Positions 582 through 62,689 are shown, numbered from the stretch's first letter. The stretch: DNA of 64,000 bases from Vulcanimicrobiota bacterium (GCA_050250895.1 JBFWNU010000002.1:1-64000), one strand, 5' to 3'. Program-made: numbers and translations. The notes: generated from the sequence alone by a model not told the origin.

Positions 582-3500
582 ATGAAGCGAGTTTCCAGAC
601 GTTCCGCACTTTCCATTGGCACGTCTCTCGAGAGTGCATTCACACGCTGGGTGACCTACCTGCTACTGGTGGCCTTCTTTTTGAGCGCAGTGCCGATCGC
701 ACCCGCCTTTGCTTTAGCGCTGGAGCCATCGCGATTCACGCCCCCTCAAACGGTCAGTCCCGACAACTTGGCAACTCCCCCAACTTTGGACCCACTGGTC
801 GTGGACGCACTCCATCAGGCTGGTCTCGACCCGGCCAAGTACGCTCCCAAATTGCCCGTCCCGGGCGTGGCTGCCAGTGACGACCCTAACGTGCCACCCG
901 AGTTGCGACCCGGGCTCTCCCCCAAGATGTTCGAGCCGGGCACGACCAAACGTTCGTCAGTGGCTGGCGGTGCCAAAGAGACACCAACCAAACCCATCAC
1001 GCCCAGGCGAGTGTTGCCCCCTCCGGCAAAGGGTTTTCGGGCCGCAACCCCGGGGTTCGAGGACCTACCCTCTATCACACCCCCTGGTCCGGATGTCATG
1101 CCGCCGTACTCTCGTTGGAGTCGCGTTCCGGCTCCGGGCCTCGGCCGCAAGATGGTGGAAGAACCGGTGGTGATGTACGATGTCGACTACCAGCTCTTAT
1201 TGAGTGAGACCTATCCTCTGGATGAGGCGACCGAGGACTTCGTCTGGGACTTCGAAAGTCCCAACCTCGATAACAATCGTACGGCGCGAGGGTCGGCTGC
1301 TTCCATCCAGTTCAGCTATCGCCGTGTCGGCGCTGTCGATAGCGAGAGTTCTTCCCCTGACGCAGCTTACAGTCTCGAGATCACCGTTTGGGACCGTGAG
1401 CATCCAGAAGGCTTTGTTGTCTCGAGTGAATCTCTGCCCATCCATCTGGCGGACTTTCAAGCCTATTGCGGCATCACCGCTCGCGACCCCGGAGTTTGGA
1501 CCGTTTTCCAGTATCAGAACGGCGGTGAGGTGACCCAGTCGAGTTTTGAGGTCGTGCATTTCTTGGCCAGCGACACGCTAGACCAGTGGGCCCGGCGTCA
1601 GGCCAACGAATGGGAGGCGACGGGGGACTCCTTTGACGGATACGGCTACCTCTCGGATGAATTCTTTGGCGAGCGGTTCCCGATGTACTTCGAAGACTTT
1701 ATTCCAGGTCTGGGCGCTTCTCGACCCTTCCGGCGCGTGGCTTCGGGCGGAGCCAGCCTGGATGTAGAGAGGTCGTTCGAATTCGTGGGGAGGGCAGAAG
1801 GGGATTCCCTCCCCCTCCAGGTTCTCCATACGGTCGACCGTTTTCAGCTCTTTGGCGCCTCTAACTATAAGAGCAAGAGCAAGCAGAAGTCCAAGCCCAA
1901 GACATCAACCAGAACGAAGCCTTCGCCCACACCCGCAGACCGCATTCGTGCTCGGATGCGAGGTGCGCACAAGCCGTGGCCCAAGGCCGGCCTCTATCGC
2001 CGGTCGCGGGCGAAGGCCTGGGAAGACAACTCCTGGCGGATCCGAAACTCACACCACCGCGGTGGCGGTTACTCGTCCGGCCGGGGCGGCCACGACAACG
2101 GGCATGGCCGCGGTCACAGCCAGCATGGTAACGGACATGGATACGGCCACGACCACCATGGCAACGGCCATGGACACGGTCACGGGGACGGCGGTCACGG
2201 TCATGGTGGTCACGGCCACGGTGGTCACGGTCATGGGGGCCACGATGGGGGCCACGGTGACGGAACAACCGGGACATCGGGTGGGACCTCGGGTGGTACG
2301 ACCGGCGGAACTTCGGGCACCGACACCGGCGGGACGACCGGCGGAACCTCGGGCACCGACACCGGCGGCACAACGGGCGGAACTTCTGGCACCGACACCG
2401 GCGGCACGACGGGCGGAACCTCGGGCACCGATACTGGCGGCACGACCGGTGGAACCTCGGGCACGGACACGGGTGGCACGACCGGAGGCACTTCTGGGGG
2501 GACCAGTGGCGGAACCAGTGGCGGAACGTCGGGGGGCACCAGCGGCGGCACGACGGGCGGAGGTGGCCAACCGAGGCGTGAGCCTGATAGCTACTTTGCC
2601 ATGAACTGGACTCACCGCAATTCGGCCTACAATCAGACCGACCTGGACACGAATTACACCGTGGCCTATGAGTATTATGCGGCCGATGCTACCGCCGGTC
2701 TTCCTGAGCAGATGGCCCGTATTGTCTATGACGTGGCCTACCCCGAGGGGAGGGTGACGGACACCTGGGAGAACTTGGAGGAAGTCTTCGGCGACCTCCA
2801 GGGCACCAGCTTCGAAGCTTTCGCTTGCGCCGGCCTACCGGGGCCCGGTATTCTCGACGTCGATTTTGTGCAGAACGGTGATGTCGCCATCTGGGGTGAA
2901 ATTGAGGCTCGTGGTCACATGGCCGTGCTCACCGACGCCCGAAATACCTATGAAGGTGGTCAGCCCAACTCGATTGCGTTCCAACTCACGACGGCTCCGG
3001 CGACCTGGGTTCCGAGCGCCTTTGACGCAACCCTCTACGTGGTGGATGAACTCAGTGGGGAAGTGATTCACACCGAGACCCAATCCATTACCGGGAACAC
3101 CGACCCGGCCCCTAGGATCGAGTTCCTATGGGACGGCCACCATGACGTGGGTGGGGACTCAGTGCGACCGGGCCAGGTCATTCACGCTGATGTGGATATT
3201 GCTATCACCGACGAAACGAGCGCGGCGCAAGAGTCGATTTTGGCCAAGGCTGGGGTGGAACTCGACATCGGCGATCCCTTGCTTGTCGCCCAGGCTCTTC
3301 CATCCCAATTGCCTGGCCCGCTCGGAGTGATCAATCCTAACGGTTACACCTGGCCAGATGGACTGGAGCCAGGCCCCGGTGACCCCAACAACCCGACGGT
3401 AACCCAGGGTGATACCACCCCTCGCTGCGTCTTTGGAACGCCGGCCTTCGGCGTGGTGCGCCCCCCGCAAGCCACCGAGTCCCTCTCCAATCTGCCCCAT

Positions 3501-6500
3501 GTGGTCGACCCGACCACAGGACGCAGTCACGGGTTCTATCCCGATCTCGTCCTCACCACCCGAGGCTTACCCATCGTGGTTGGCCGCCATCACGATAGTA
3601 CCCGAGAGGGTTTCGATGCCCTGCAAGGTTGGCGCTGGACCTTCCAGGAATACCTACAACTGGGCGCCCAGGGCACCATGACCCGGAAGACGCCCGATGG
3701 CAACACCCAGGTCTTCGTCCTTAATGGGGCCAACTTCGAGGCTGCCGATCCGTCCATAACCTCAAAGCTCACCCAAACGGGCACCAACACCTTCACCATT
3801 ACCGAAAAGAGTGGGATCAAGTTCAACTATGCGCGGCACGATGTCTTTACTTTCCTGCTCAGCAGTATCGAAGACCGCAACGGTAATGCGACCAGCTACA
3901 CCTGGAACGCCGACGGGATTCGAATGGAGAAGATCACCGACCCGGTTGGGCGTCAGGTGCTCTTTACCTGGAGTACTCCGCCTGGCATCGGCCAACGTCC
4001 TCGCCTGGATTCGGTGAAGGACTGGGCCAATCGAGAGGTTCACTACGACTACGTTCAGGGTCTCGGCTTCACCCAACTGCTCAAGAAGGCGAGACTGCCC
4101 GAGAACATTGCGTACACCTACGACTACCTCGAGTTGACCTGTCCCTACCACCCGCTGGATGGCAACTACACGCTCAGTGGCGTCACTCTCAATACGGCCT
4201 CGGGGGGACGCGCGGATCTCCGGGTAGCCCCGGTGCTCCGGCAACCCGGTGGCCTCACGGTTGGCGCTATCGACTCCTCGAACGCCGTCGTGAGTTTCCA
4301 GACTTCGCTCAAGAATCTCCCCGGTCAAAGGGGCTGGCAGAGCAGCCAGCCCACGAAGTTCGATCGGCATGGCACAGGGGTGTCCGCCCAGCAATGGTCC
4401 TACACTCAGAACGACCGTGGCTTGATTCGGACCGCTCTCAACCCGCTTAACCAGGACACTCAATTCGAGTATGACCCCAACGATAACATCACCCGGGTCA
4501 TCGACACCTTAAGTCACGATGTGGTGCTTGGCTGGGACGCCAGGCATAACCCGACCTCTGTCAGAGACAAGAACGGGATTATCACCTCGCTCTCCTGGTT
4601 TCCCACCGATGACCTGCGCAGCGTTCAGCGCCTGAACTCGAGCGGCACTCCAACCATCACTGAATTCGCCTACGACAGTCATCGCAACCTGACCAGCATC
4701 AAAGATCCCGAAGGGCACTTCACCTACTTCGAATACAACGGCAATGGCTTGTTGACTGAGGTTCGCGATCACTTGGGCAACGCCACCAGCTTTGGCTACA
4801 ACTCTAACGGATACCTCACCAGCATCACCGATCCAGAGACCAGAGTTACGACCTTCCAGGTGGATACCCTGGGCCGGCGAACGGCCGTGATCGACGCTCG
4901 TCAGAAGCGTTGGGACTACGCCTACGATGCGCTCGACCGCCTCACCAGCGTGACTTCGCCCCCCGACGTTGACAACGTCAGGTCTGTGACCCGGTGGAAT
5001 TGGAACGCTGATGGGACGCTCCGCGACATCATCGATGGAAACCTCAAGACGACCAGCTATACGTATGATAAGTCCCAGCGGGTGACGCAGGTCAACCTGC
5101 CCTCCGTTCCCGACAGGATCAGATACGAGTATGATCCCATCGGCAACGTCAAAAGATTCTACAACCCCAAGGACGACTTCACAGAGTATAGCTACGACAA
5201 ACTAAATCGCGTCACCCGGGTGACCTATCCAGGTTCAGATTTCGAGGCCTATGGGTATGACACCGTCGGGAATCTGACCACCTGGGACCGCAACGGCGCC
5301 CCTCAGGTTCGCTACGGATACGACTCCGGCCACCGTTTGACTTCGATCGCCACGACGGGCACCAACATCGGCTACCACTACGACACGCTTGACCGTATGG
5401 ATTCGATGACCGATGCAAGCGGGTCCACAAGCTGGGAATACTTCCTCGATTCAACCCTAAAGACGGTCAACTATCCCGGCGGCAAGTCGGTGAGCTATAC
5501 CTATGACGAGGTCAATAGAACCAGGTCCGTAACCTCGTCGAGCGGGGCCAGGACCGACTATACCTGGACCGCTCGCAACCAGCTCCAAATGGCCACCCAG
5601 GGTGGGAAGAGCTTTGTCTATGGCTACGACTTCGCCGAGAACCTGACCTCGATTGCCTATCCCAACGGCATCAGCTGTAACGCGACCTACGACGACCGTG
5701 GGCGCGTAGCCCAGATTAGTTACACCAACGGCGGTTCCCCCGTCGCGAGCGTCGACTACACCTTCGACCAGGTCGGAAATCGCCGTCAGAAGACCCTGAG
5801 AAGTTCTTCGGCGACCACCGTCGAAGACTACAACTATGACGACCGCTACCAGGTCACGTCGGTGGCCCGGTCCATCAACGGCACTCCTGCTGCCAATGTT
5901 GCGCTGGCCTACGACCTCAACGGCAATCGCTCTGCCAAGAACGGAGTTGCATACAACTACAACGCCGCGGACCAGCTCATGAGCGGTGGTCCCGAAGCCG
6001 TCTCCATGGCCTACAACGGCACAGGCTCACCGAGCAGCCTCAGGATCGGCTCAGACCTGCAACAATACACCTACGACTTCCGCGACATGCCCACAGCCAT
6101 CGCCACCGCGAACGGCACGGCACACAACGTCTACAACGGCCTAAACCAGCGCCTCAGCCACACAGCCACCGACGGGACCGTATCGAATTATCTCTGGAGC
6201 GGCGACCAACTGCTGACCGAATTCAACGGTAGCCAGGTCAAGGCAGACTACCTGCTCGGCGTCTTCCGCGAAGGAATCAAGACCGCCGATGGATGGCGCT
6301 TCTATCTCCGCGATGGCATCGGCTCGATCATCGCTCTGACTGATGAGAGCGGTAACGTCACCGACAGCTATGACTACGACGAGTTTGGAAACTTGCTTGC
6401 CTCGAGCAGCACATCCAGCTACAACCCCTTCATGTTCAGCGGAGAACAATTCGACGCGGATGTGGGCCAGTATTACCTCCGGAATCGCTTCTACCAACCC

Positions 6501-7184
6501 ACCTTAGGCAGGTTCCTGGTGCGGGATCCCATCGGCTACAGCGGTGGCATGAACCTGTATGCCTACTGCGGAAATAATCCGCTGAACTGCACGGATCCGA
6601 GCGGGTTGGAGACCGGGTGGGTAACCTACGACGCACATGAGCGGGCTCACAATCCGCGCTACAAACCTCGCCCGTTGGGTCCGTATGCACGCATTCCAGG
6701 AGTAACGGTAGGCCCAACAGGGACGGTCATTCTCCACAACCTAAGCGAGAATCCACTGACCGAAGGGCAGACTCTGAAAATTCAAAATGCAGTCAATCAA
6801 CTTGGAGCGAAAGACCCGAACGCCCGCATTATCGTTCACGGAAGTCAAGTCAAAGGAACCACGGGTGACCAAAGCGATGTGGACTACATGATTCGAGGCG
6901 GAAATTCAAAGGCTCGTGCGCGTGCCATCAGATCATTGCCCAGGGGTCCGGGCGGGGGTCAGCTGGGGACGGGTACCTCCGGGGGATTTAGTGGGCGCGA
7001 CGTGATGTGGGAAGGCGATCCGGCTAAAGCCGAGATGATCCAGGAGATATTGACATCTGGAAAGCCATATATCGAATTCCTACCCGGCACCTCGCAAATA
7101 CCGGAGGTGATTGTTCCGGTTGCACCAGAAGTCGTCCCGGAAATACTTGAACTGCCGGAGTTTCCATTCTTCTTTGAACTTTGA
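582..7184 (+). CDS. Rhs/YD-repeat polymorphic toxin, 2200 aa, with putative nucleotidyltransferase C-terminal domain
   Basis: N-terminal hydrophobic segment (WVTYLLLVAFFLSAVPIAPAFA), many YD repeats, and Rhs core motifs (FSGEQFD, YYLRNRFYQP.LGRFL.RDPIG, NPLNCTDPSGL). The ~190-aa tip contains IIVHGSQVKG...SDVDYMI. Confidence 0.95.
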   Translation: MKRVSRRSALSIGTSLESAFTRWVTYLLLVAFFLSAVPIAPAFALALEPSRFTPPQTVSPDNLATPPTLDPLVVDALHQAGLDPAKYAPKLPVPGVAASDDPNVPPELRPGLSPKMFEPGTTKRSSVAGGAKETPTKPITPRRVLPPPAKGFRAATPGFEDLPSITPPGPDVMPPYSRWSRVPAPGLGRKMVEEPVVMYDVDYQLLLSETYPLDEATEDFVWDFESPNLDNNRTARGSAASIQFSYRRVGAVDSESSSPDAAYSLEITVWDREHPEGFVVSSESLPIHLADFQAYCGITARDPGVWTVFQYQNGGEVTQSSFEVVHFLASDTLDQWARRQANEWEATGDSFDGYGYLSDEFFGERFPMYFEDFIPGLGASRPFRRVASGGASLDVERSFEFVGRAEGDSLPLQVLHTVDRFQLFGASNYKSKSKQKSKPKTSTRTKPSPTPADRIRARMRGAHKPWPKAGLYRRSRAKAWEDNSWRIRNSHHRGGGYSSGRGGHDNGHGRGHSQHGNGHGYGHDHHGNGHGHGHGDGGHGHGGHGHGGHGHGGHDGGHGDGTTGTSGGTSGGTTGGTSGTDTGGTTGGTSGTDTGGTTGGTSGTDTGGTTGGTSGTDTGGTTGGTSGTDTGGTTGGTSGGTSGGTSGGTSGGTSGGTTGGGGQPRREPDSYFAMNWTHRNSAYNQTDLDTNYTVAYEYYAADATAGLPEQMARIVYDVAYPEGRVTDTWENLEEVFGDLQGTSFEAFACAGLPGPGILDVDFVQNGDVAIWGEIEARGHMAVLTDARNTYEGGQPNSIAFQLTTAPATWVPSAFDATLYVVDELSGEVIHTETQSITGNTDPAPRIEFLWDGHHDVGGDSVRPGQVIHADVDIAITDETSAAQESILAKAGVELDIGDPLLVAQALPSQLPGPLGVINPNGYTWPDGLEPGPGDPNNPTVTQGDTTPRCVFGTPAFGVVRPPQATESLSNLPHVVDPTTGRSHGFYPDLVLTTRGLPIVVGRHHDSTREGFDALQGWRWTFQEYLQLGAQGTMTRKTPDGNTQVFVLNGANFEAADPSITSKLTQTGTNTFTITEKSGIKFNYARHDVFTFLLSSIEDRNGNATSYTWNADGIRMEKITDPVGRQVLFTWSTPPGIGQRPRLDSVKDWANREVHYDYVQGLGFTQLLKKARLPENIAYTYDYLELTCPYHPLDGNYTLSGVTLNTASGGRADLRVAPVLRQPGGLTVGAIDSSNAVVSFQTSLKNLPGQRGWQSSQPTKFDRHGTGVSAQQWSYTQNDRGLIRTALNPLNQDTQFEYDPNDNITRVIDTLSHDVVLGWDARHNPTSVRDKNGIITSLSWFPTDDLRSVQRLNSSGTPTITEFAYDSHRNLTSIKDPEGHFTYFEYNGNGLLTEVRDHLGNATSFGYNSNGYLTSITDPETRVTTFQVDTLGRRTAVIDARQKRWDYAYDALDRLTSVTSPPDVDNVRSVTRWNWNADGTLRDIIDGNLKTTSYTYDKSQRVTQVNLPSVPDRIRYEYDPIGNVKRFYNPKDDFTEYSYDKLNRVTRVTYPGSDFEAYGYDTVGNLTTWDRNGAPQVRYGYDSGHRLTSIATTGTNIGYHYDTLDRMDSMTDASGSTSWEYFLDSTLKTVNYPGGKSVSYTYDEVNRTRSVTSSSGARTDYTWTARNQLQMATQGGKSFVYGYDFAENLTSIAYPNGISCNATYDDRGRVAQISYTNGGSPVASVDYTFDQVGNRRQKTLRSSSATTVEDYNYDDRYQVTSVARSINGTPAANVALAYDLNGNRSAKNGVAYNYNAADQLMSGGPEAVSMAYNGTGSPSSLRIGSDLQQYTYDFRDMPTAIATANGTAHNVYNGLNQRLSHTATDGTVSNYLWSGDQLLTEFNGSQVKADYLLGVFREGIKTADGWRFYLRDGIGSIIALTDESGNVTDSYDYDEFGNLLASSSTSSYNPFMFSGEQFDADVGQYYLRNRFYQPTLGRFLVRDPIGYSGGMNLYAYCGNNPLNCTDPSGLETGWVTYDAHERAHNPRYKPRPLGPYARIPGVTVGPTGTVILHNLSENPLTEGQTLKIQNAVNQLGAKDPNARIIVHGSQVKGTTGDQSDVDYMIRGGNSKARARAIRSLPRGPGGGQLGTGTSGGFSGRDVMWEGDPAKAEMIQEILTSGKPYIEFLPGTSQIPEVIVPVAPEVVPEILELPEFPFFFEL
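2292..2471 (+). repeat. Five tandem 36-bp coding repeats (GGTTGGTSGTDT) in the Rhs linker, preceded by a His/Gly-rich tract (~2050-2260)
   Basis: The peptide units are identical while the DNA varies at synonymous positions. GGTS units follow to ~2560. Confidence 0.9.
6494..6610 (+). repeat. Rhs core-end homology block, copy 1 (117 bp)
   Basis: ccaacccaccttaggcaggttcctggtgcg...gcgggttgga is nearly identical to 8791-8907. Confidence 0.95.
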
Positions 7185-7185
7185 G

Positions 7186-7653
7186 ATGAAGTATCGTGAT
7201 TATCTTATCAACGGATTTGCACAAGGCTTGGTGGAGTTTTCAACCGTGCTGAGCTACTTCGAACAGCTTTCGTACGAAGGTCGGTCGAGCTTTCTAGAGT
7301 TCTTGCTTTGGTATGCGAAGGAGGCCCGTTTTCGCGACAGCGATGCGCAGCTCGCCGTTCAGCGCTCCGAGCAGAAGTCCACGTTCACTCCTTCGGTCCT
7401 GCTACTGCTGGGAAGACACGACAAGATTCCCAAACTTCCGGAAGATGAGCAGTTGAAGAGCCTGAGGTTGTTGCTAAACCTCTTCGCGATAGCTGATGAG
7501 CGGCGAAGACACGACGTTTGCAAGGGGGCTTGCCAGCATTGGTGGCACAATGACCTGCAATACCAATGGGCTAAAACGCCCTCCGGGGCGGTGCCGCGCC
7601 CTTCGACCGAAGGGCGCTCGACACCGCCGCGGGACGTGAGCAAAGACGAGTGA
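7186..7653 (+). CDS. Putative immunity protein, DUF5958-like
   Basis: ATG lies 1 nt after the Rhs stop. Motifs INGFAQG, KSTFTPSVLL and LFAIADERRR...CKGACQHWWH recall DUF5958. The 3' end reads into the 186-bp repeat. Confidence 0.7.
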   Translation: MKYRDYLINGFAQGLVEFSTVLSYFEQLSYEGRSSFLEFLLWYAKEARFRDSDAQLAVQRSEQKSTFTPSVLLLLGRHDKIPKLPEDEQLKSLRLLLNLFAIADERRRHDVCKGACQHWWHNDLQYQWAKTPSGAVPRPSTEGRSTPPRDVSKDE

Positions 7654-7759
7654 CGGTGAAGGGCGTGAGCGTGGCTGAAAGGCGCTCGGGCGCAGTTCTC
7701 AGACCACGTCGAACCTGATATAACTGCGCGCGAAACGGGAGTGGCAAGGCCCACCGGAG
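7574..7759. repeat. 186-bp direct repeat, copy 1 (putative element end or recombination site)
   Basis: Highly similar to 10029-10214. Contains the perfect hairpin gcgcccttcg-ac-cgaagggcgc (7596-7617) and the inverted pair gcgcagtt...aactgcgc (7690-7729). Confidence 0.9.
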
Positions 7760-7849
7760 CCCAAGACTCGGCTCGAACGGACCCAAGAGCGGGTAGCCGA
7801 GACTTGGGCTTTGACGTCGGCGCGTCCCCGGCTGGTGGCTAAAGAGTGG

Positions 7850-8599
7850 CCGGCTGGCTTGGCCTGGGCCGGCAAAGCAGAGACCGCAGCGTTGAACAAG
7901 AAAAGAGCGAGATCGCTGCGGCCACTGCGCAGGCATTCGCCGTCGGCTCCAGGGGCTGCGTTGACCAGGCTAAAGAGCGAGCGGCAGCCCCGTCACCGCC
8001 GGCGCCAGGAACCTGCTGGGGCCGCTTTGCGCGGTCTGCAGAGAGCGCGGCCTTGGCCACCAGAGAACAAGAACGCCGCGGCCACTGCTCCAAGGTTTCG
8101 GACCTTCATCCGAGCTGGCGACCTTCGGCTTGGTCGGCGCTGCGCGCCTCCCGCGCCGAGCGCCACCGGCTCCAGGGGCTGCGCCCGCCTGCTAAAGAGC
8201 GACCTGCGCAGCCCCGTCCCCGGCGGCGTGAGATCCGATCGGGTCGACCTGGTGGCCAAAGACCTGTCCTTCGAGACCGCCGAGCACGAGAGCGAGCCCC
8301 GGTGGCCGAGGTGCCGCGGCGTGGCCGCGGACACCCCCGGCCGGGAAGCGCCTCGAGGAACAGAGCTCGTGGCTGCACAGCGCCAGCGCGAGAAGGCAGC
8401 CCTCGATGTGAAGGCCACGCCGCATAGCCTGCGGCATGCGTTCGCCACGACGGCCGCCAGCAAGACGGGCGACATCCGGGCGGTGCAGCAGATCCTGGGT
8501 TCCGCCCACCAGAAGATTCTGCACGCTCACCTCGAGAACATCGGCGAGTCGTTCCAACATTTTCATGCGCGGCCGAACCTTGTCTGTCTCCCAGCCTGA
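7850..8599 (+). pseudogene. Decayed XerC-like tyrosine recombinase
   Basis: KATPHSLRHAFAT...GDIRAVQQILG retains the HxxR and LG motifs, but the segment carrying the catalytic Tyr is missing. The upstream part is scrambled; the 5' boundary is approximate. Confidence 0.7.
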
Positions 8600-8638: not shown

Positions 8639-9493
8639 GTGCCGTCGAATCTTTTCTTTATGGGCGCTTGCCTTGCCGCCATCCCCACCGCATCGAACTC
8701 GGCGCGCCGGTCCAGACCGGCGCTTTCGCTGGTTCCGAAAAGGCGCGTACCCGGTGTGCCGCCCTTGAACGCGGGTCATTCAAAGCCGTCCCAACCCACC
8801 TTAGGCAGGTTCCTGGTGCGCGATCCCATCGGCTACAGCGGTGGCATGAACCTGTATGCCAACTGCGGAAATAATCCGTTGAATTGCACGGACCCCAGCG
8901 GTTTGGATGCTGCTCAGCAAGCAGCCATTACTGACGCCATCAATTTCATCGAAGCTAACAGTAGCGGATTGAGTCCCAATATCGTCCCGCGACTGCGGGC
9001 TATTCAGGATTCTGGAGCGATCTATTTGAAGGCAAACCTGAAAATCGGTACTTATGGTTTTCGGAAGAGTGTCCGTGGATATTCCCAGGGGGGCAAGATC
9101 TACGTAAACTCTACCAGCCTGGGGCTTTCCCCTCCACCTGCTGTTGCGGCGAGGACCTTGAACGCATTGGAACGTCGACAAGCTGGTTCTATGAGCGAGG
9201 CAGACTTTCACCAAGTTATGTTGCGGGTCAATGACACCTACACATCGTTTCTGGTTGAACTTGCGGCCTTACTCGTGCACGAAGGCACTCACGAAGCCGG
9301 AGCCCGGTACAAAAACGAGGTCGCCGACGAGCAGGCCGCGTATACGGCAGAGGCGGTTTTTCTAAACAATCTCAAAAGTAAGTATTCGGGACTCCCGACT
9401 ACCCAATCTACCATCAATGGTGGCCTGGAGGCGGTCAAGCAAGATGCAGTGACATTTGGATATCCTATACCAACGGTTTTGTTACCCAAATGA
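8639..9493 (+). CDS. Orphan Rhs C-terminal module with HExxH zinc-metallopeptidase-like toxin
   Basis: Carries the core end (GRFLVRDPIG...DPSGL) followed by an unrelated tip with LVHEGTH and a downstream Glu (DEQAAY). The start is uncertain and the module may be silent. Confidence 0.8.
   Translation: MPSNLFFMGACLAAIPTASNSARRSRPALSLVPKRRVPGVPPLNAGHSKPSQPTLGRFLVRDPIGYSGGMNLYANCGNNPLNCTDPSGLDAAQQAAITDAINFIEANSSGLSPNIVPRLRAIQDSGAIYLKANLKIGTYGFRKSVRGYSQGGKIYVNSTSLGLSPPPAVAARTLNALERRQAGSMSEADFHQVMLRVNDTYTSFLVELAALLVHEGTHEAGARYKNEVADEQAAYTAEAVFLNNLKSKYSGLPTTQSTINGGLEAVKQDAVTFGYPIPTVLLPK
8791..8907 (+). repeat. Rhs core-end homology block, copy 2
   Basis: Near-identical to 6494-6610. Confidence 0.95.
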
Positions 9494-9930
9494 GGCGCAC
9501 GCACATCATCTCCTGTATAGTCGGGATGTCTGTCATTGCTCTTTTCTTTTGTATCACCCGGAGCCGGCCGCGACCTACCTACACACCTAGCCTGTTACGG
9601 GAAATTTACGGCGCCGTCGCCATAGATTATCCCATACAGAACGGAGGTCGATATCCAGTAGAAATGGCTGCGGCATCACAGTTTCTCCATACACAACAAG
9701 CTATCGAGCTTTCCTCCCGGGTAACTTTAAATCGACTCCTGTGTGGGCGGTCCATATCGACGTTAACCGATGAAGAGGAAGCTAAGACGCCTCTTCTAAT
9801 CTTTGACGATTCAGATTCCGCTTCCGAGCGTTTGGTGATATTCGCCAATGGTGTACCGCGCAGGCTCACTCGCAGGGAGCTACAGCAGGCAGTCGCTGAC
9901 CATCGCCTTTCGCTCAAAGCGACGGACTGA
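9490..9930 (+). CDS. Putative membrane-anchored immunity protein of the orphan module
   Basis: Overlaps the toxin stop by 4 nt (ATGA) and has an N-terminal TM segment (IISCIVGMSVIALFFCI). Confidence 0.65.
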   Translation: MRRTHIISCIVGMSVIALFFCITRSRPRPTYTPSLLREIYGAVAIDYPIQNGGRYPVEMAAASQFLHTQQAIELSSRVTLNRLLCGRSISTLTDEEEAKTPLLIFDDSDSASERLVIFANGVPRRLTRRELQQAVADHRLSLKATD

Positions 9931-10028: not shown

Positions 10029-10214
10029 AAACGCGCTCCGGGGCGCCGTCGCGCCCTTCGACCGAAGGGCGCTCGACACCGCCGCGGGACGTGAGCAAGG
10101 ACGAGTGACGGTGAAGGGGGTGGGCGTGGCTGAAAGGCGCTCGGGCGCAGTTCTCAGACCACGTCGAACCTGATAGAACTGCGCACGAAACGGGAGTGGC
10201 AAGGCCCACCGGAG
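10029..10214. repeat. 186-bp direct repeat, copy 2
   Basis: Matches 7574-7759, with hairpins at 10051-10072 and 10145-10184. Confidence 0.9.
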
Positions 10215-46488: not shown

Positions 46489-47577
46489 ATGGAATCACCC
46501 ACTCTCAATCGTAAAGCAATCTTGGAACTCGCCGACGTGCAAGCCAAGACCTGCGTGACGCTGTTGATGGATACGGCCCGATCTGGCCCGTCAGCTCGCC
46601 AGGGCCAGATTCGTTTCAAGAATCTGGTAAGTCAAGCCGAGGCCGAACTCAAAGCCAGAAACCTTCGTCAAGACGAAGTCGCGGCACTACTTAAACCGAC
46701 CGAGCAACTACTCATCGACACACTCTTTTGGTCCTACCAGATGGAAGGACTGGCGATCTACCTCGAGGGTGGCACCCGTCGTCTTTACCAGTTGCCTTTT
46801 CCCGTGCAAGACCGGGTGGTGGTGGCCGATCAATTTTACGTAAAGCCTCTGCTCAAGGCCGCCACCAACGAGAACTACTACGTCCTGAGCCTCAACCTAA
46901 ACGGAGTTCAATTGTTGCTGTGCGGCGCGCAGGGAGTGAGCGTGTTTTCGCTAGAAGCTACGGCGAAATCTCTCAAGGAGTTCATGGACGCCACCGAGAT
47001 CAGCCCCGAGCTTCAACATCACGGCCGCGCCGCATCCCGGGGAGCGCCAACCTCGAGTTATCACGGTCACGGCGGCAACGAAGACCTCCGCAAAGTCGCC
47101 CTGGGGGAATGGATGGGTTCCTTGGCTCGAGTGGTGGAAGGCGTGCTCTTGGAAGAACGGCTTCCTCTGGTTTTGGCCGGGGTCGAGTATGTGGTGGGTG
47201 AATACCGCACGCATGACCGGTACCCCCATACCGTGCCCGAAGCGGTGCTCGGTAGTCCCGAAAGGAAGTCACCCTCCGAGCTTCGTCAGGCTAGCTGGCA
47301 AAGGGTGAAGGGCCTCTTTGAGGAGCGTCTGCAACAGGAATTGGGGCGTTTCCAGGCTGGCGCTGGCACGGGTCGGAGCATCTGCGGCCTCGAAGAGTGC
47401 CTCCAGGCGGCGGCCGAGGGGAGGGTGGAGCACCTGCTGGTCGCTGACGGGGGCAGGACGGAAGAACTGTCGGAGCGCGCTTGTTTGGACACCCTCCGCA
47501 ATGGCGGCAGCGTCAGTGTGCTCTCGCCGGAAATGGTGCCCGGCGGCGGCCAGATTGCGGCTATTCTTCGCTTTTAG
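46489..47577 (+). CDS. Bacterial archaeo-eukaryotic release factor (baeRF)-family protein
   Basis: IRFKNL, F.VKPLL, PLVLAG, AAAEGRVEHLLV and C-terminal IAAILRF. Confidence 0.75.
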   Translation: MESPTLNRKAILELADVQAKTCVTLLMDTARSGPSARQGQIRFKNLVSQAEAELKARNLRQDEVAALLKPTEQLLIDTLFWSYQMEGLAIYLEGGTRRLYQLPFPVQDRVVVADQFYVKPLLKAATNENYYVLSLNLNGVQLLLCGAQGVSVFSLEATAKSLKEFMDATEISPELQHHGRAASRGAPTSSYHGHGGNEDLRKVALGEWMGSLARVVEGVLLEERLPLVLAGVEYVVGEYRTHDRYPHTVPEAVLGSPERKSPSELRQASWQRVKGLFEERLQQELGRFQAGAGTGRSICGLEECLQAAAEGRVEHLLVADGGRTEELSERACLDTLRNGGSVSVLSPEMVPGGGQIAAILRF

Positions 47578-61531: not shown

Positions 61532-62689
61532 TTGTCTGATTCTTTTCGCTCTTTTGACCTTCTCAAGAGCAGCCTCACAGCCCTGGAACGTATGGGTATC
61601 GACACCCCCACGCCCATCCAGGCTCAGGCCCTACCCCTCTTGCTCGACGGCCACGACCTCATCGGTCAGGCCCGCACCGGTTCGGGCAAAACCCTGGCCT
61701 TCTCGCTACCCATGATGGAATATGTCGAGCCTTCCGAGAAAGAGGTCCAGGCCCTGGTGCTCACCCCCACCCGCGAGCTGGCCACTCAGATCGCCACCGT
61801 GGTTGAAGAGTTGGCCAAAGCCGACCGCCTGCGCACCCTTACTATTTTTGGTGGCCGGGCCATCGGGCCCCAAGAAAAGCGTCTGCGCGACGGCATCCAG
61901 ATCGTGGTGGGCACGCCGGGCCGCGTGCTCGACCTGATCCAGCGCGGGACCCTCAAGCTCCATCGCGTCAACTACGTGGTCATCGACGAAGCCGACGAGA
62001 TGCTCGACCAGGGCTTCGCTCCCGCGGTGGAGCGCATCCTCGGCTCGATCAAGCACGACCATCTGACCGCCCTCTTCTCGGCCACCATGCCCGACTGGGT
62101 TCATCAGGCCAGTCGCAAGTATCTGCACAAACCGCGCACCGTGGCCATCGACACGGCCCCCGAGGATGTGCCCGACATCGAGCACCTTGCCTGCGAGGTG
62201 CCCGAAGGGCTACGATTCAAAGCTTTGACCTGTCTGCTCGAAGAACGGGGCGACGGGTCGGCCATCATCTTCGGGCGCACCAAGTACGGAGTCAAAAAGC
62301 TCACTCGCATCCTCGAGCGCGAGGGCTATCCGGTGGCCGCCCTCCAGGGCAACATGAGCCAGAACGCGAGGGATCGCGTCATGCAAGCCTTCCGGGACGG
62401 CGAAGTCGGCATCCTGGTGGCCACCAACGTGGCCGCGCGTGGGCTGGATGTAGACCACGTGGAACTGGTCATCAATTACGAGTTGCCCGAGAACCACGAG
62501 CTGCTCACGCACCGGGTCGGCCGAACGGGCCGCATGGGTCGCCAGGGCAGGGCTTTCACGCTGTTGACCCCGTCGGACGCGACCAAGTGGCGCTCGATGG
62601 AGCGCGGTCTGGGCCGGTCCATCAAGAAGGTGCGCTGGCAAGACCCCGATAGCCGGCCCAGCCGCCAGTCTCGCTCGCGCCGTCGCTAG
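61532..62689 (+). CDS. DEAD-box RNA helicase
   Basis: PTPIQ, ARTGSGKT, PTRELA, DEAD, SAT, ARGLD and HRVGRTGR. TTG start assumed. Confidence 0.95.
   Translation: MSDSFRSFDLLKSSLTALERMGIDTPTPIQAQALPLLLDGHDLIGQARTGSGKTLAFSLPMMEYVEPSEKEVQALVLTPTRELATQIATVVEELAKADRLRTLTIFGGRAIGPQEKRLRDGIQIVVGTPGRVLDLIQRGTLKLHRVNYVVIDEADEMLDQGFAPAVERILGSIKHDHLTALFSATMPDWVHQASRKYLHKPRTVAIDTAPEDVPDIEHLACEVPEGLRFKALTCLLEERGDGSAIIFGRTKYGVKKLTRILEREGYPVAALQGNMSQNARDRVMQAFRDGEVGILVATNVAARGLDVDHVELVINYELPENHELLTHRVGRTGRMGRQGRAFTLLTPSDATKWRSMERGLGRSIKKVRWQDPDSRPSRQSRSRRR

Follow-up and report, generated by a model that had tools for sequence, protein, structure and literature searches.

A predicted minimal Pol-beta-type nucleotidyltransferase tip on an Rhs protein of a Vulcanimicrobiota bacterium, and DUF5958 as its candidate immunity protein

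The C-terminal tips of known Rhs and other polymorphic toxins are mostly nucleases, deaminases, ADP-ribosyltransferases and NADases. Here we describe an rhs gene from a Vulcanimicrobiota bacterium (GCA_050250895.1), which lies in a stretch of 64,000 nucleotides (JBFWNU010000002.1:1-64000, referred to as the window) and is directly followed by a small gene of the family DUF5958. From the predicted fold of the tip, the family to which it belongs and the genes that accompany this family, we consider it likely that the Rhs protein ends in a nucleotidyltransferase (NTase) toxin of the Pol-beta type and that the DUF5958 protein is its cognate immunity protein. The features of the locus are compiled in Table 1.

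Table 1. Features of the rhs locus and of the orphan cassette downstream of it (window coordinates; pLDDT, predicted local distance difference test).
Feature	Position	Strand	Basis or remark
rhs gene, 2200 aa, YD/RHS repeats	582..7184	+	ORF call, Pfam RHS_repeat, NCBIfam YD_repeat_2x and RHS_core
Rhs-associated core, DPSGL self-cleavage motif at its end	6375..6608	+	TIGR03696
Toxin tip, 191 aa and stop	6609..7184	+	residues 5-48 a low-confidence linker; model pLDDT <50 at 1-16 and 21-32
Predicted minimal Pol-beta nucleotidyltransferase core, tip residues 49-164	6741..7088	+	Pfam, model, VIA-align, hhalign
Catalytic signature: G82-S83 (6840-6845), D94 (6876-6878), D96 (6882-6884)	6840..6884	+	conservation in cores
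Third carboxylate D135 (GRDVM)	6999..7001	+	model strand 136-138
Pro/Glu/Val-rich tail, 31 aa, TSQIPEVIVPVAPEVVPEILELPEFPFFFEL, ends FPFFFEL	7089..7181	+	alignment; low to middling pLDDT
DUF5958 gene, 155 aa, candidate immunity protein; domain 7198-7554	7186..7653	+	Pfam; co-occurrence
C-x3-C-x-H-x2-H motif (CKGACQHWWH; C112, C116, H118, H121), putative zinc site	7519..7548	+	alignment
186-nt interspersed repeat, strong hairpin, 3' cassette edge	7574..7759	+	sequence comparison
Orphan cassette: core-end remnant 8791-8907, HEGTHE tip to 9493, 146-aa candidate immunity gene 9490-9930	8639..9930	+	TIGR03696, 43.8 bits
Second copy of the 186-nt repeat, closes the orphan cassette	10029..10214	+	95% identity to the first copy

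The Rhs protein is matched by the Pfam family RHS_repeat in 11 stretches (E 1.4e-50) and by the NCBIfam model TIGR01643 with 107 bits. The match to the Rhs-associated core (TIGR03696, 88.3 bits, residues 1932-2009) closes with the motif DPSGL at 6594-6608. The original prediction had placed a tip of about 190 amino acids behind this motif and, within the tip, the stretch RIIVHGSQVKGTTGDQSDVDYMI at 6825-6893. Both statements hold: the tip comprises 191 amino acids at 6609-7181, with the stop codon at 7182-7184, and the stretch corresponds to tip residues 77-99. The N-terminus of the Rhs protein, MKRVSRR...LLLVAFFLSAVPIAPAFALA, resembles a signal or membrane anchor, the hydrophobic stretch being judged by eye. 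PAAR, VgrG or other genes of the type VI secretion system were not seen in Pfam scans of the Rhs protein and of 26/42 selected window open reading frames (ORFs). Repeats, a DPxGL core joined to a variable tip, a small gene downstream and a nearby orphan cassette, whose tip is unrelated to that of the rhs gene, are all present as in Rhs/YD polymorphic toxins, and the locus is a real, well-formed toxin-immunity locus.

At about 2040-2500 (residues ~487-640), in its N-terminal third, the protein also contains a long His/Gly run (GHGHGHG...) and behind it about 11 TGGTSG(TD) repeats, an arrangement unusual among Rhs proteins.

When the tip was scanned alone, the Pfam family NTP_transf_2 (PF01909) matched it with 23.8 bits (gathering threshold 21, E 5.8e-5). 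A search of PDB sequences with the single tip sequence gave chance rows only; the profile of the tip and 31 relatives retrieved minimal nucleotidyltransferases (MNTs) first (1wot with E 0.0037 and 7ae2 with E 0.0057), followed by 8xeo and then by 1no5 (HI0073). Compared by hhalign with ten MNT genes of the same genome, the toxin family was aligned over 24 columns with a probability of 93.4% and E 2.5e-7. PADLOC and PHROGs returned nothing of weight for the tip, and a tblastn search of plasmids with it had no match.

An AlphaFold model of the tip was built on the alignment of the tip and its 31 relatives. Its mean pLDDT is 70.9, with values of 82-93 in the core and disordered flanks. The elements follow each other as helix, strand, GS loop, DxD strand, helix, third-Asp strand, an extra helix and a final strand PYIEF, and the model matches the alpha-beta-alpha-beta-alpha-beta core fold of nucleotidyltransferases. 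Nearly all Foldseek rows are Pol-beta nucleotidyltransferases. The top row is 1no5 (probability 0.97, template modelling score 0.57 by target length), and MntA and MNT antitoxins also head the list. With VIA-align, 94 of 99 residues were aligned to 8xeo_A (Z 6.9, root-mean-square deviation 2.9 A), and the further rows 8xeh_E (Z 6.7) and 1no5_A (Z 6.5) covered 93-96 residues; aminoglycoside and CCA-adding transferases ranked lower than the MNTs. We accept the fold because the model agrees with the sequence signature and spans almost complete MNT chains. By its predicted fold the tip is thus a minimal Pol-beta-type nucleotidyltransferase, as the fold comparison proposed in the original prediction should have it. 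Relative to its homologues the window tip has two additions, a helix at residues 142-154 and the 31-aa tail, a part of the family alignment to which no relative extends.

The second gene of the pair follows after a single base, which separates the stop codon of rhs from the ATG at 7186 (TGAgATG). Its product is matched by DUF5958 (PF19383) over profile positions 3-125 of 125 with 107.1 bits (threshold 23.6, E 9.8e-31), so that the prediction of a DUF5958-like gene one nucleotide downstream was right. The predicted metal-binding-like CxxxCxHWWH motif is present as well, and its four putative ligands, C112, C116, H118 and H121, do not vary in any of the 25 DUF5958 sequences aligned, which makes a zinc site probable. 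Likewise invariant in this alignment are D104 and R106-R108 and the polar residues N9, Q13, D53 and E88. The span 6609..7653 that had been proposed for the pair has the right coordinates; its last part, the final 27 codons and the stop codon of the DUF5958 ORF (from 7574), is however derived from a 186-nt interspersed repeat and lies outside the domain.

The DUF5958 protein is predicted to be all-alpha with eight helices (pLDDT 85.3, above 92 for residues 1-110). No convincing match to this fold was found, the best Foldseek row having E 2.4 and the best row of a wide VIA-align search Z 5.8 (2gno_A). Rows of the HEPN family reached just Z 3.2-3.8 in VIA-align, no more than the noise level for helical proteins, and we assign no fold on these grounds. 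Against PDB sequences the single sequence gave chance rows and the profile nothing, and a stored DUF5958 homologue in the ESM Atlas had no usable match. A homologue search with the single window sequence recovered only itself.

The toxin domain is recurrent. Among 1.84 billion representative proteins, 52 relatives were found at E <= 1e-3, the best with E 3.1e-9 and none at 1e-10. The domain comprises about 95 amino acids with the pattern RIQ..A....v.VVGSRA.GTA...SDwDYvi.GgNs..R......LP.G......G..GiD.f......PHi.F.P. In proteins of 91-2373 amino acids, its end lies at most 41 residues from the C-terminus in 52/52 relatives. As carriers, Pfam identified RHS in four, PT-HINT in four, PT-TG in two and SLH in one of the 52; among 21 long ORFs of the loci described below, nine have RHS repeats and two PT-HINT. 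NTP_transf_2 was found in 40 of the 52 relatives at E <= 0.01 and in 20 at 21 bits or more. Since the nucleotidyltransferase motif occurs in a recurrent domain family, it is more than chance, and the earlier view of the tip as a toxin is borne out by the position of the domain as a polymorphic-toxin tip on Rhs, HINT and PT-TG carriers. The genome itself holds one copy of the toxin domain and one DUF5958 gene. Separately, one relative of 221 amino acids (P0020) has a weak DUF4265 match (E 0.0014) at its N-terminus.

Further loci came from a metagenome scan with two peptide patterns taken from a subset of the alignment. From 413 stretches with a pattern match, 121 confirmed relatives remained, and the best 80 of these were taken. 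For a non-redundant set the cores were collapsed at 90% identity, the window and six genome loci were added and a single locus that lacked the motif was left out, which gave 62 cores. G82 and S83 are each present in 62/62 of these cores, D94 in 62/62, D96 in 61/62 and D135 in 58/62. The GS and GID stretches belonged to the retrieval patterns, and D94 and D96 are therefore the unbiased columns. Together with the Pfam match and the model, these residues agree with the Pol-beta signature and third Asp that had been predicted for the tip.

As partner we took the ORF that starts beside the toxin stop codon, which was then classified by a Pfam scan and by our own hidden Markov models (HMMs) made from the analysed sequences. 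DUF5958 is the partner in 41 of the 80 metagenomic loci (29 by Pfam, 12 by our own HMM) and DUF6959 in 29 (25 by Pfam, 4 by our own HMM). An identical familyless protein of 151 amino acids takes this place in five loci, and the remaining five comprise contig ends, truncated toxins or, once, a 76-aa ORF. Where Pfam made the DUF5958 call (29 loci), the partner starts at -29 to +20 nt from the stop codon of the toxin. The two main partners are unrelated: a single family comprising DUF5958 and DUF6959 was rejected at an hhalign probability of 0.1%.

The partner follows the toxin type. The 62 clusters divide into 29 with DUF5958, 28 with DUF6959, one with the third family and four with none, and no cluster mixes DUF5958 with DUF6959, either at 90% or at 70% identity. 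When the partner labels were placed on a maximum-likelihood tree built from the 62 cores, DUF5958 required four changes, compared with a mean of 20.7 for shuffled labels (0/500 as low), and DUF6959 seven, compared with 20.5. Six loci were found when the scan covered a single genome for each species; DUF6959 lies directly downstream in five of them (L002-L006) and DUF5958 in none, the sixth being broken off. A named replicon carries the DUF5958 pairing: on plasmid NZ_CP107946.1 of Streptomyces sp. NBC_00390 a gene annotated as 'polymorphic toxin-type HINT domain-containing protein' ends in the toxin domain at 61930, and the tblastn match to DUF5958 begins at 61925, 5 nt past the toxin. In the terms used by Zhang 2012 for immunity proteins, DUF5958 is a small single-domain protein encoded immediately behind the toxin, and its homologues recur beside toxin genes. 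These co-occurrences suggest that DUF5958 is the immunity protein of the toxin domain. The original prediction had assigned this function to DUF5958; what stands is a recurrent, coupled partner (41/80 loci and the plasmid), and what has to be amended is its exclusiveness, as at least one further, unrelated family, DUF6959, takes the same place.

Some observations on the other partners may be added. DUF6959 (PF22281) is an acidic protein of about 90 amino acids with the motif PGRxFPGVviQGDsL. It had no match in the Vulcanimicrobiota genome, in a search in which the control genomes gave none either. The five loci with the 151-aa partner (L064, L069, L070, L073, L074) form a distinct toxin subclade in which GSEDLRGVDVD replaces GID, and the 76-aa ORF lies behind the toxin of L057 (2755-3021). 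The 151-aa protein and the 76-aa ORF may be further types of immunity protein. Searches of PADLOC and PHROGs with DUF5958, DUF6959 and the 151-aa partner had no match of weight.

DUF5958 is most frequent outside this pairing. Among the 120 listed of 309 profile matches, nearly all named rows are from Streptomyces or Kitasatospora and are free-standing proteins of typically about 143 amino acids; among 49 plasmid records, Streptomyces accounts for 46 and Kitasatospora for two. The family is rare in the phylum of the window (2/401 genomes searched), and its second copy there has no toxin next to it. At the 13 Streptomyces plasmid loci inspected, SMI1/KNR4 (SUKH) or barstar genes lie within 4 kb of DUF5958 in six, DUF4265 or DUF6461 are neighbours in five (DUF4265 in L013, L017 and L019), and none of these, nor a Fic gene, is a neighbour in three. 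The position of DUF5958 among SUKH and barstar genes is what orphan immunity genes would be expected to show. In 3/13 loci a gene of the Fic family overlaps the start of DUF5958 by 4 nt from upstream, with a fourth case in the search table; the copy in L012 is matched by Pfam Fic with 27.6 bits and has the motif HPFEDGNAR. This arrangement points to a further partner for DUF5958, a nucleotide-transferring enzyme unrelated to the tip. The Fic-DUF5958 operons are near-identical and may thus be a single mobile module. The survey of DUF5958 neighbourhoods proposed beforehand thereby led to a HINT toxin on one Streptomyces plasmid and, at other loci, to immunity islands or Fic. The Fic operons consist of three genes with 4-nt overlaps, a familyless protein of 201-224 amino acids preceding Fic and DUF5958 (L012, 2746-4396; L015, 2674-4399; L016, 2746-4399).

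Several points weigh against the reading of the pair as a nucleotidyltransferase toxin and its immunity protein. With regard to the tip, NTP_transf_2 falls below the cut-off (19.7 bits) when the entire 2200-aa protein is scanned, and the sequence homology to nucleotidyltransferases is confined to the GS-DxD stretch, that is, to the 24 hhalign columns and to positions 5-43 of 93 in the Pfam profile. Foldseek had no match at E <= 0.001, and the VIA-align Z values are middling, none reaching 8, below which a score can mean a common arrangement. On the maximum-likelihood tree the window tip is a long-branch outlier (end branch 2.25) in no supported clade, so that what is deduced for the family is one step away from the window protein. 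Its core is neutral (isoelectric point, pI, 6.8) and not basic. With regard to the partner, the many invariant polar residues of DUF5958 are atypical of a simple plug, and the majority of DUF5958 genes, those of Streptomyces, are without a toxin. The 80 loci are biased to well-conserved members and include near-duplicates, and 16 of the 70 partner calls come from our own HMMs, mostly where the first ORF rule had missed the start. Finally, linked genes share their history, and the tree accordingly shows that partner switches are rare and does not prove binding.

The mechanism that we propose is the following. The Rhs polymorphic toxin would be exported by the Sec route and its C-terminal tip freed after DPSGL. 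In the target cell G82-S83 together with D94, D96 and D135 would bind a nucleoside triphosphate (NTP) and Mg2+, and the tip would transfer the nucleoside monophosphate (NMP) to a hydroxyl group of an essential, universally conserved macromolecule. The DUF5958 protein, translationally coupled, all-alpha and probably stabilised by zinc, would block the toxin most likely by direct, clade-specific binding.

We considered two alternatives for the macromolecule, both by analogy with known enzymes. First, the substrate could be an RNA 3' end, for example the acceptor end of tRNA as in MenT toxins, which is our tentative choice; second, it could be a protein side chain as in MntA, which we regard as a possibility of its own. 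There is a slight lean to RNA, and the remainder falls to other targets. A basic toxin with an acidic partner is the usual signature of nucleic-acid-directed toxins. The toxin cores have median pI values of 9.7 and 9.2, compared with 5.2 for the MNTs of the genome, and DUF6959 has 4.8; basic cores and an acidic DUF6959 are together a weak pointer to RNA.

In its most specific form the protein alternative states that the tip is a protein AMPylase or NMPylase which docks on an essential target and modifies Tyr, Thr or Ser, as MntA does with HepT. The nearest relatives of the tip in sequence and structure are MNT antitoxins, which according to two reports AMPylate protein (PMC11586414, PMC13000451), protein NMPylation is proposed for a related nucleotidyltransferase of polyvalent proteins by Iyer 2017 (PMC5512222), and the model of the tip domain has no extra RNA-binding module. 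The difference in charge between the toxin cores (pI 9.2-9.7) and the MNTs of the same genome (5.2) and the strongly acidic character of one partner family speak for another kind of substrate; neither is decisive. On balance we hold this form of the reading to be unlikely, though less so than the alternatives that follow.

A different question is whether DUF5958 acts beyond a plug: it could serve as a decoy substrate, or it could have an enzymatic activity by which the nucleotide modification is removed or absorbed. The residues invariant throughout the family (N9, Q13, D53, E88, D104, R106-108 and the C-C-H-H set), the 4-nt overlap with the upstream Fic gene in 3/13 Streptomyces loci and the many copies without a toxin would fit such an activity. 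The near-identity of the Fic operons reduces their weight, however, as they may be one mobile module, and neither Foldseek nor VIA-align matched DUF5958 to a hydrolase fold. Moreover, the toxin subclades split cleanly between two unrelated partners, DUF5958 and DUF6959, a pattern that is more easily reconciled with specific binding than with generic repair, and we consider a decoy or enzyme improbable. A still more speculative version, to which we give little credence, is that DUF5958 is a zinc-bearing pseudo-substrate which is nucleotidylated by the toxin, as HepT is by MntA, or cancels the transfer, and which also guards against Fic. It would explain the polar invariance, the position behind two unrelated NMP-transferring folds and the hundreds of toxin-less copies in Streptomyces. 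If it were true, the toxin family would be an inside-out counterpart of an MNT-HEPN-like pair, turned into an interbacterial weapon.

The tip could also act on small molecules, producing a toxic nucleotide or draining NTP in the manner of RelA/SpoT-like (p)ppApp synthetase effectors. The Pol-beta fold is common to these enzymes, no other nucleotidyltransferases are mentioned among polymorphic toxins in the searched part of the text of Zhang 2012 (PMC3482391), and the tip domain is too small for an obvious macromolecule-binding module. The Pfam scans of the tip and the 52 relatives contained no family of the RelA/SpoT type, though, and the best structural rows are transferases of the MNT, aminoglycoside and CCA types, which makes an action on small molecules very unlikely. 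That the motif is a decayed, non-catalytic remnant and DUF5958 an unrelated neighbour is hardly credible: the high divergence of the window tip and its sub-cut-off score in the whole-protein scan would agree with it, but the catalytic residues are all intact in the window tip and in the family, the genes are joined by one base, and the pairing recurs in 41/80 loci and on the named plasmid. A macromolecule-modifying toxin that is held in check by direct binding of DUF5958 is the reading that we prefer.

The surroundings of the pair indicate how such modules may be exchanged. The 117 nt at the end of the core (6494-6610) recur with 94% identity 2.3 kb downstream at 8791-8907, in front of the tip of the orphan cassette. 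This tip of 195 amino acids contains the HExxH-like sequence HEGTHE and is overlapped by the 146-aa ORF. Neither product is matched in Pfam, NCBIfam or PHROGs, and the orphan tip has no match among PDB sequences. Both cassettes are closed by the 186-nt repeat, of which there are 36 matches in the genome, 23 of them downstream of an Rhs core end; conversely, 23 of the 26 Rhs core-end matches in the genome are followed by a same-strand copy at a distance of 940-1228 nt. None of the 15 other genomes of the family in which the repeat was sought gave a match, which speaks against a family-wide element, and Rfam has no match in the window. The immunity genes have a G+C content of 0.48-0.52, compared with 0.65-0.74 in the flanks.

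Tip and immunity gene are thus bounded at both ends by conserved sequence, which would permit their replacement by double recombination. We propose that they would form an exchangeable cassette of about 1 kb, delimited by the conserved end of the rhs core on the 5' side and by the genome-specific repeat on the 3' side, where the repeat may provide the homology for the exchange. In this way the 186-nt repeat may show the swapping of modules by recombination at both ends. A published description of such a 3' anchor was not met with, no literature search having been aimed at it.

Two other findings in the window were recorded. Between the cassettes (7811-8599) there is a remnant of a tyrosine recombinase (Phage_integrase, 26.7 bits with a cut-off of 27.1), the frame of which as a whole is probably not a real gene. 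Farther downstream, just after a gene for a DUF389 membrane protein, lies a gene for a bacterial eRF1-like protein (baeRF family 7/3, 46489-47577).

Concerning known systems, the toxin family is very probably the one catalogued as Ntox45. In Table 2 of Zhang 2012 (PMC3482391) this entry is described as alpha+beta with a DxD motif, associated with RHS repeats and HINT proteases and with export of the Sec/T2SS type, and as occurring in Actinobacteria, alpha-proteobacteria and Bacteroidetes; the immunity column of this row holds '-'. In Iyer 2017 (PMC5512222) Ntox45 is called a minimal Pol-beta nucleotidyltransferase, and NMP transfer to protein is suggested by analogy with MNT antitoxins. All stated features fit the present family (alpha+beta, DxD, C-terminal position on RHS and HINT carriers), the two being matched by description, and the Pfam scans of the tip and the 52 relatives contained no match to a model of the name Ntox45. 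To the original prediction it has to be added that the toxin class was probably catalogued before, and that only the immunity assignment looks new.

Full-text searches turned up no paper naming DUF5958 or DUF6959. Experimental work on Ntox45 did not turn up either, the name occurring in Zhang 2012, in Iyer 2017 and under one further, unrelated-looking title; a hit in a paper on ants proved to be spurious (clantox, reference 45). Searches for polymorphic toxins of the nucleotidyltransferase or AMPylating type yielded RelA/SpoT-like and Fic-type effectors only. The class of Pol-beta nucleotidyltransferase tips thus had a catalogue entry, probably Ntox45, with neither an immunity protein nor a test in the literature searched. 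Two candidate antidote families, DUF5958 and DUF6959, can now be supplied, and with them a function is proposed for two Pfam families. This assignment appears to be new, while neighbour lists in the supplements of Zhang 2012 may pre-date it. The stand-alone DUF5958 genes of Streptomyces become explainable as orphan immunity genes, and matched pairs are at hand for a possibly new killing chemistry, whose enzyme domain, at ~95-115 aa, is among the smallest of its kind.

The closest relatives by structure are MntA and other MNT antitoxins (8xeo, 7ae2, 7bxo, 1no5), which share with the tip the size, the fold and the GSxxxG...SDxD signature with a third Asp. MntA transfers NMP from NTP, the chemistry presumed for the tip, and AMPylates its partner protein, according to two papers (PMC11586414, PMC13000451). 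It is an intracellular antitoxin of the type VII HepT-MntA (HEPN-MNT) systems, which guards its own cell through AMPylation of a HEPN partner, whereas the tip is the toxic end of an exported Rhs protein and has no HEPN neighbour; the neighbour is DUF5958. With 15.2 bits (threshold 60) for the NCBIfam MntA model NF047752 the tip is not a member of the MntA family, though its action may be similar, and MNTs are acidic in contrast to the basic toxin cores.

MenT and AbiEii, of the MenAT toxin-antitoxin systems, are nucleotidyltransferase toxins of the Pol-beta superfamily and the nearest precedent for a possible action of the tip. MenT toxins are larger, belong to the intracellular toxin-antitoxin type and form another family. 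They differ from the tip in delivery, which is by Rhs in our case, and in the antidotes, here DUF5958 and DUF6959. The AbiEii/DUF1814 family is not in the Pfam output for the tip and its 52 relatives, a kind of list that distant kinship may escape. According to published reports, MenT adds nucleotides to tRNA acceptor ends and arrests growth (PMC10435456, PMC11541572, PMC11162799).

Fic effectors have a fold unrelated to that of the tip, and the sole link is given by the Streptomyces DUF5958 genes behind a Fic gene. An example is CccR of Yersinia pseudotuberculosis, described as a secreted antibacterial effector that transfers AMP to its target (PMC9755527). With classical Rhs toxins, finally, the locus of the window has in common the RHS repeats, the DPxGL core, the variable tip, the small immunity gene and the orphan tip, and what the Rhs cassettes of this genome add to the classical plan is the 186-nt repeat at their 3' side (23/26).

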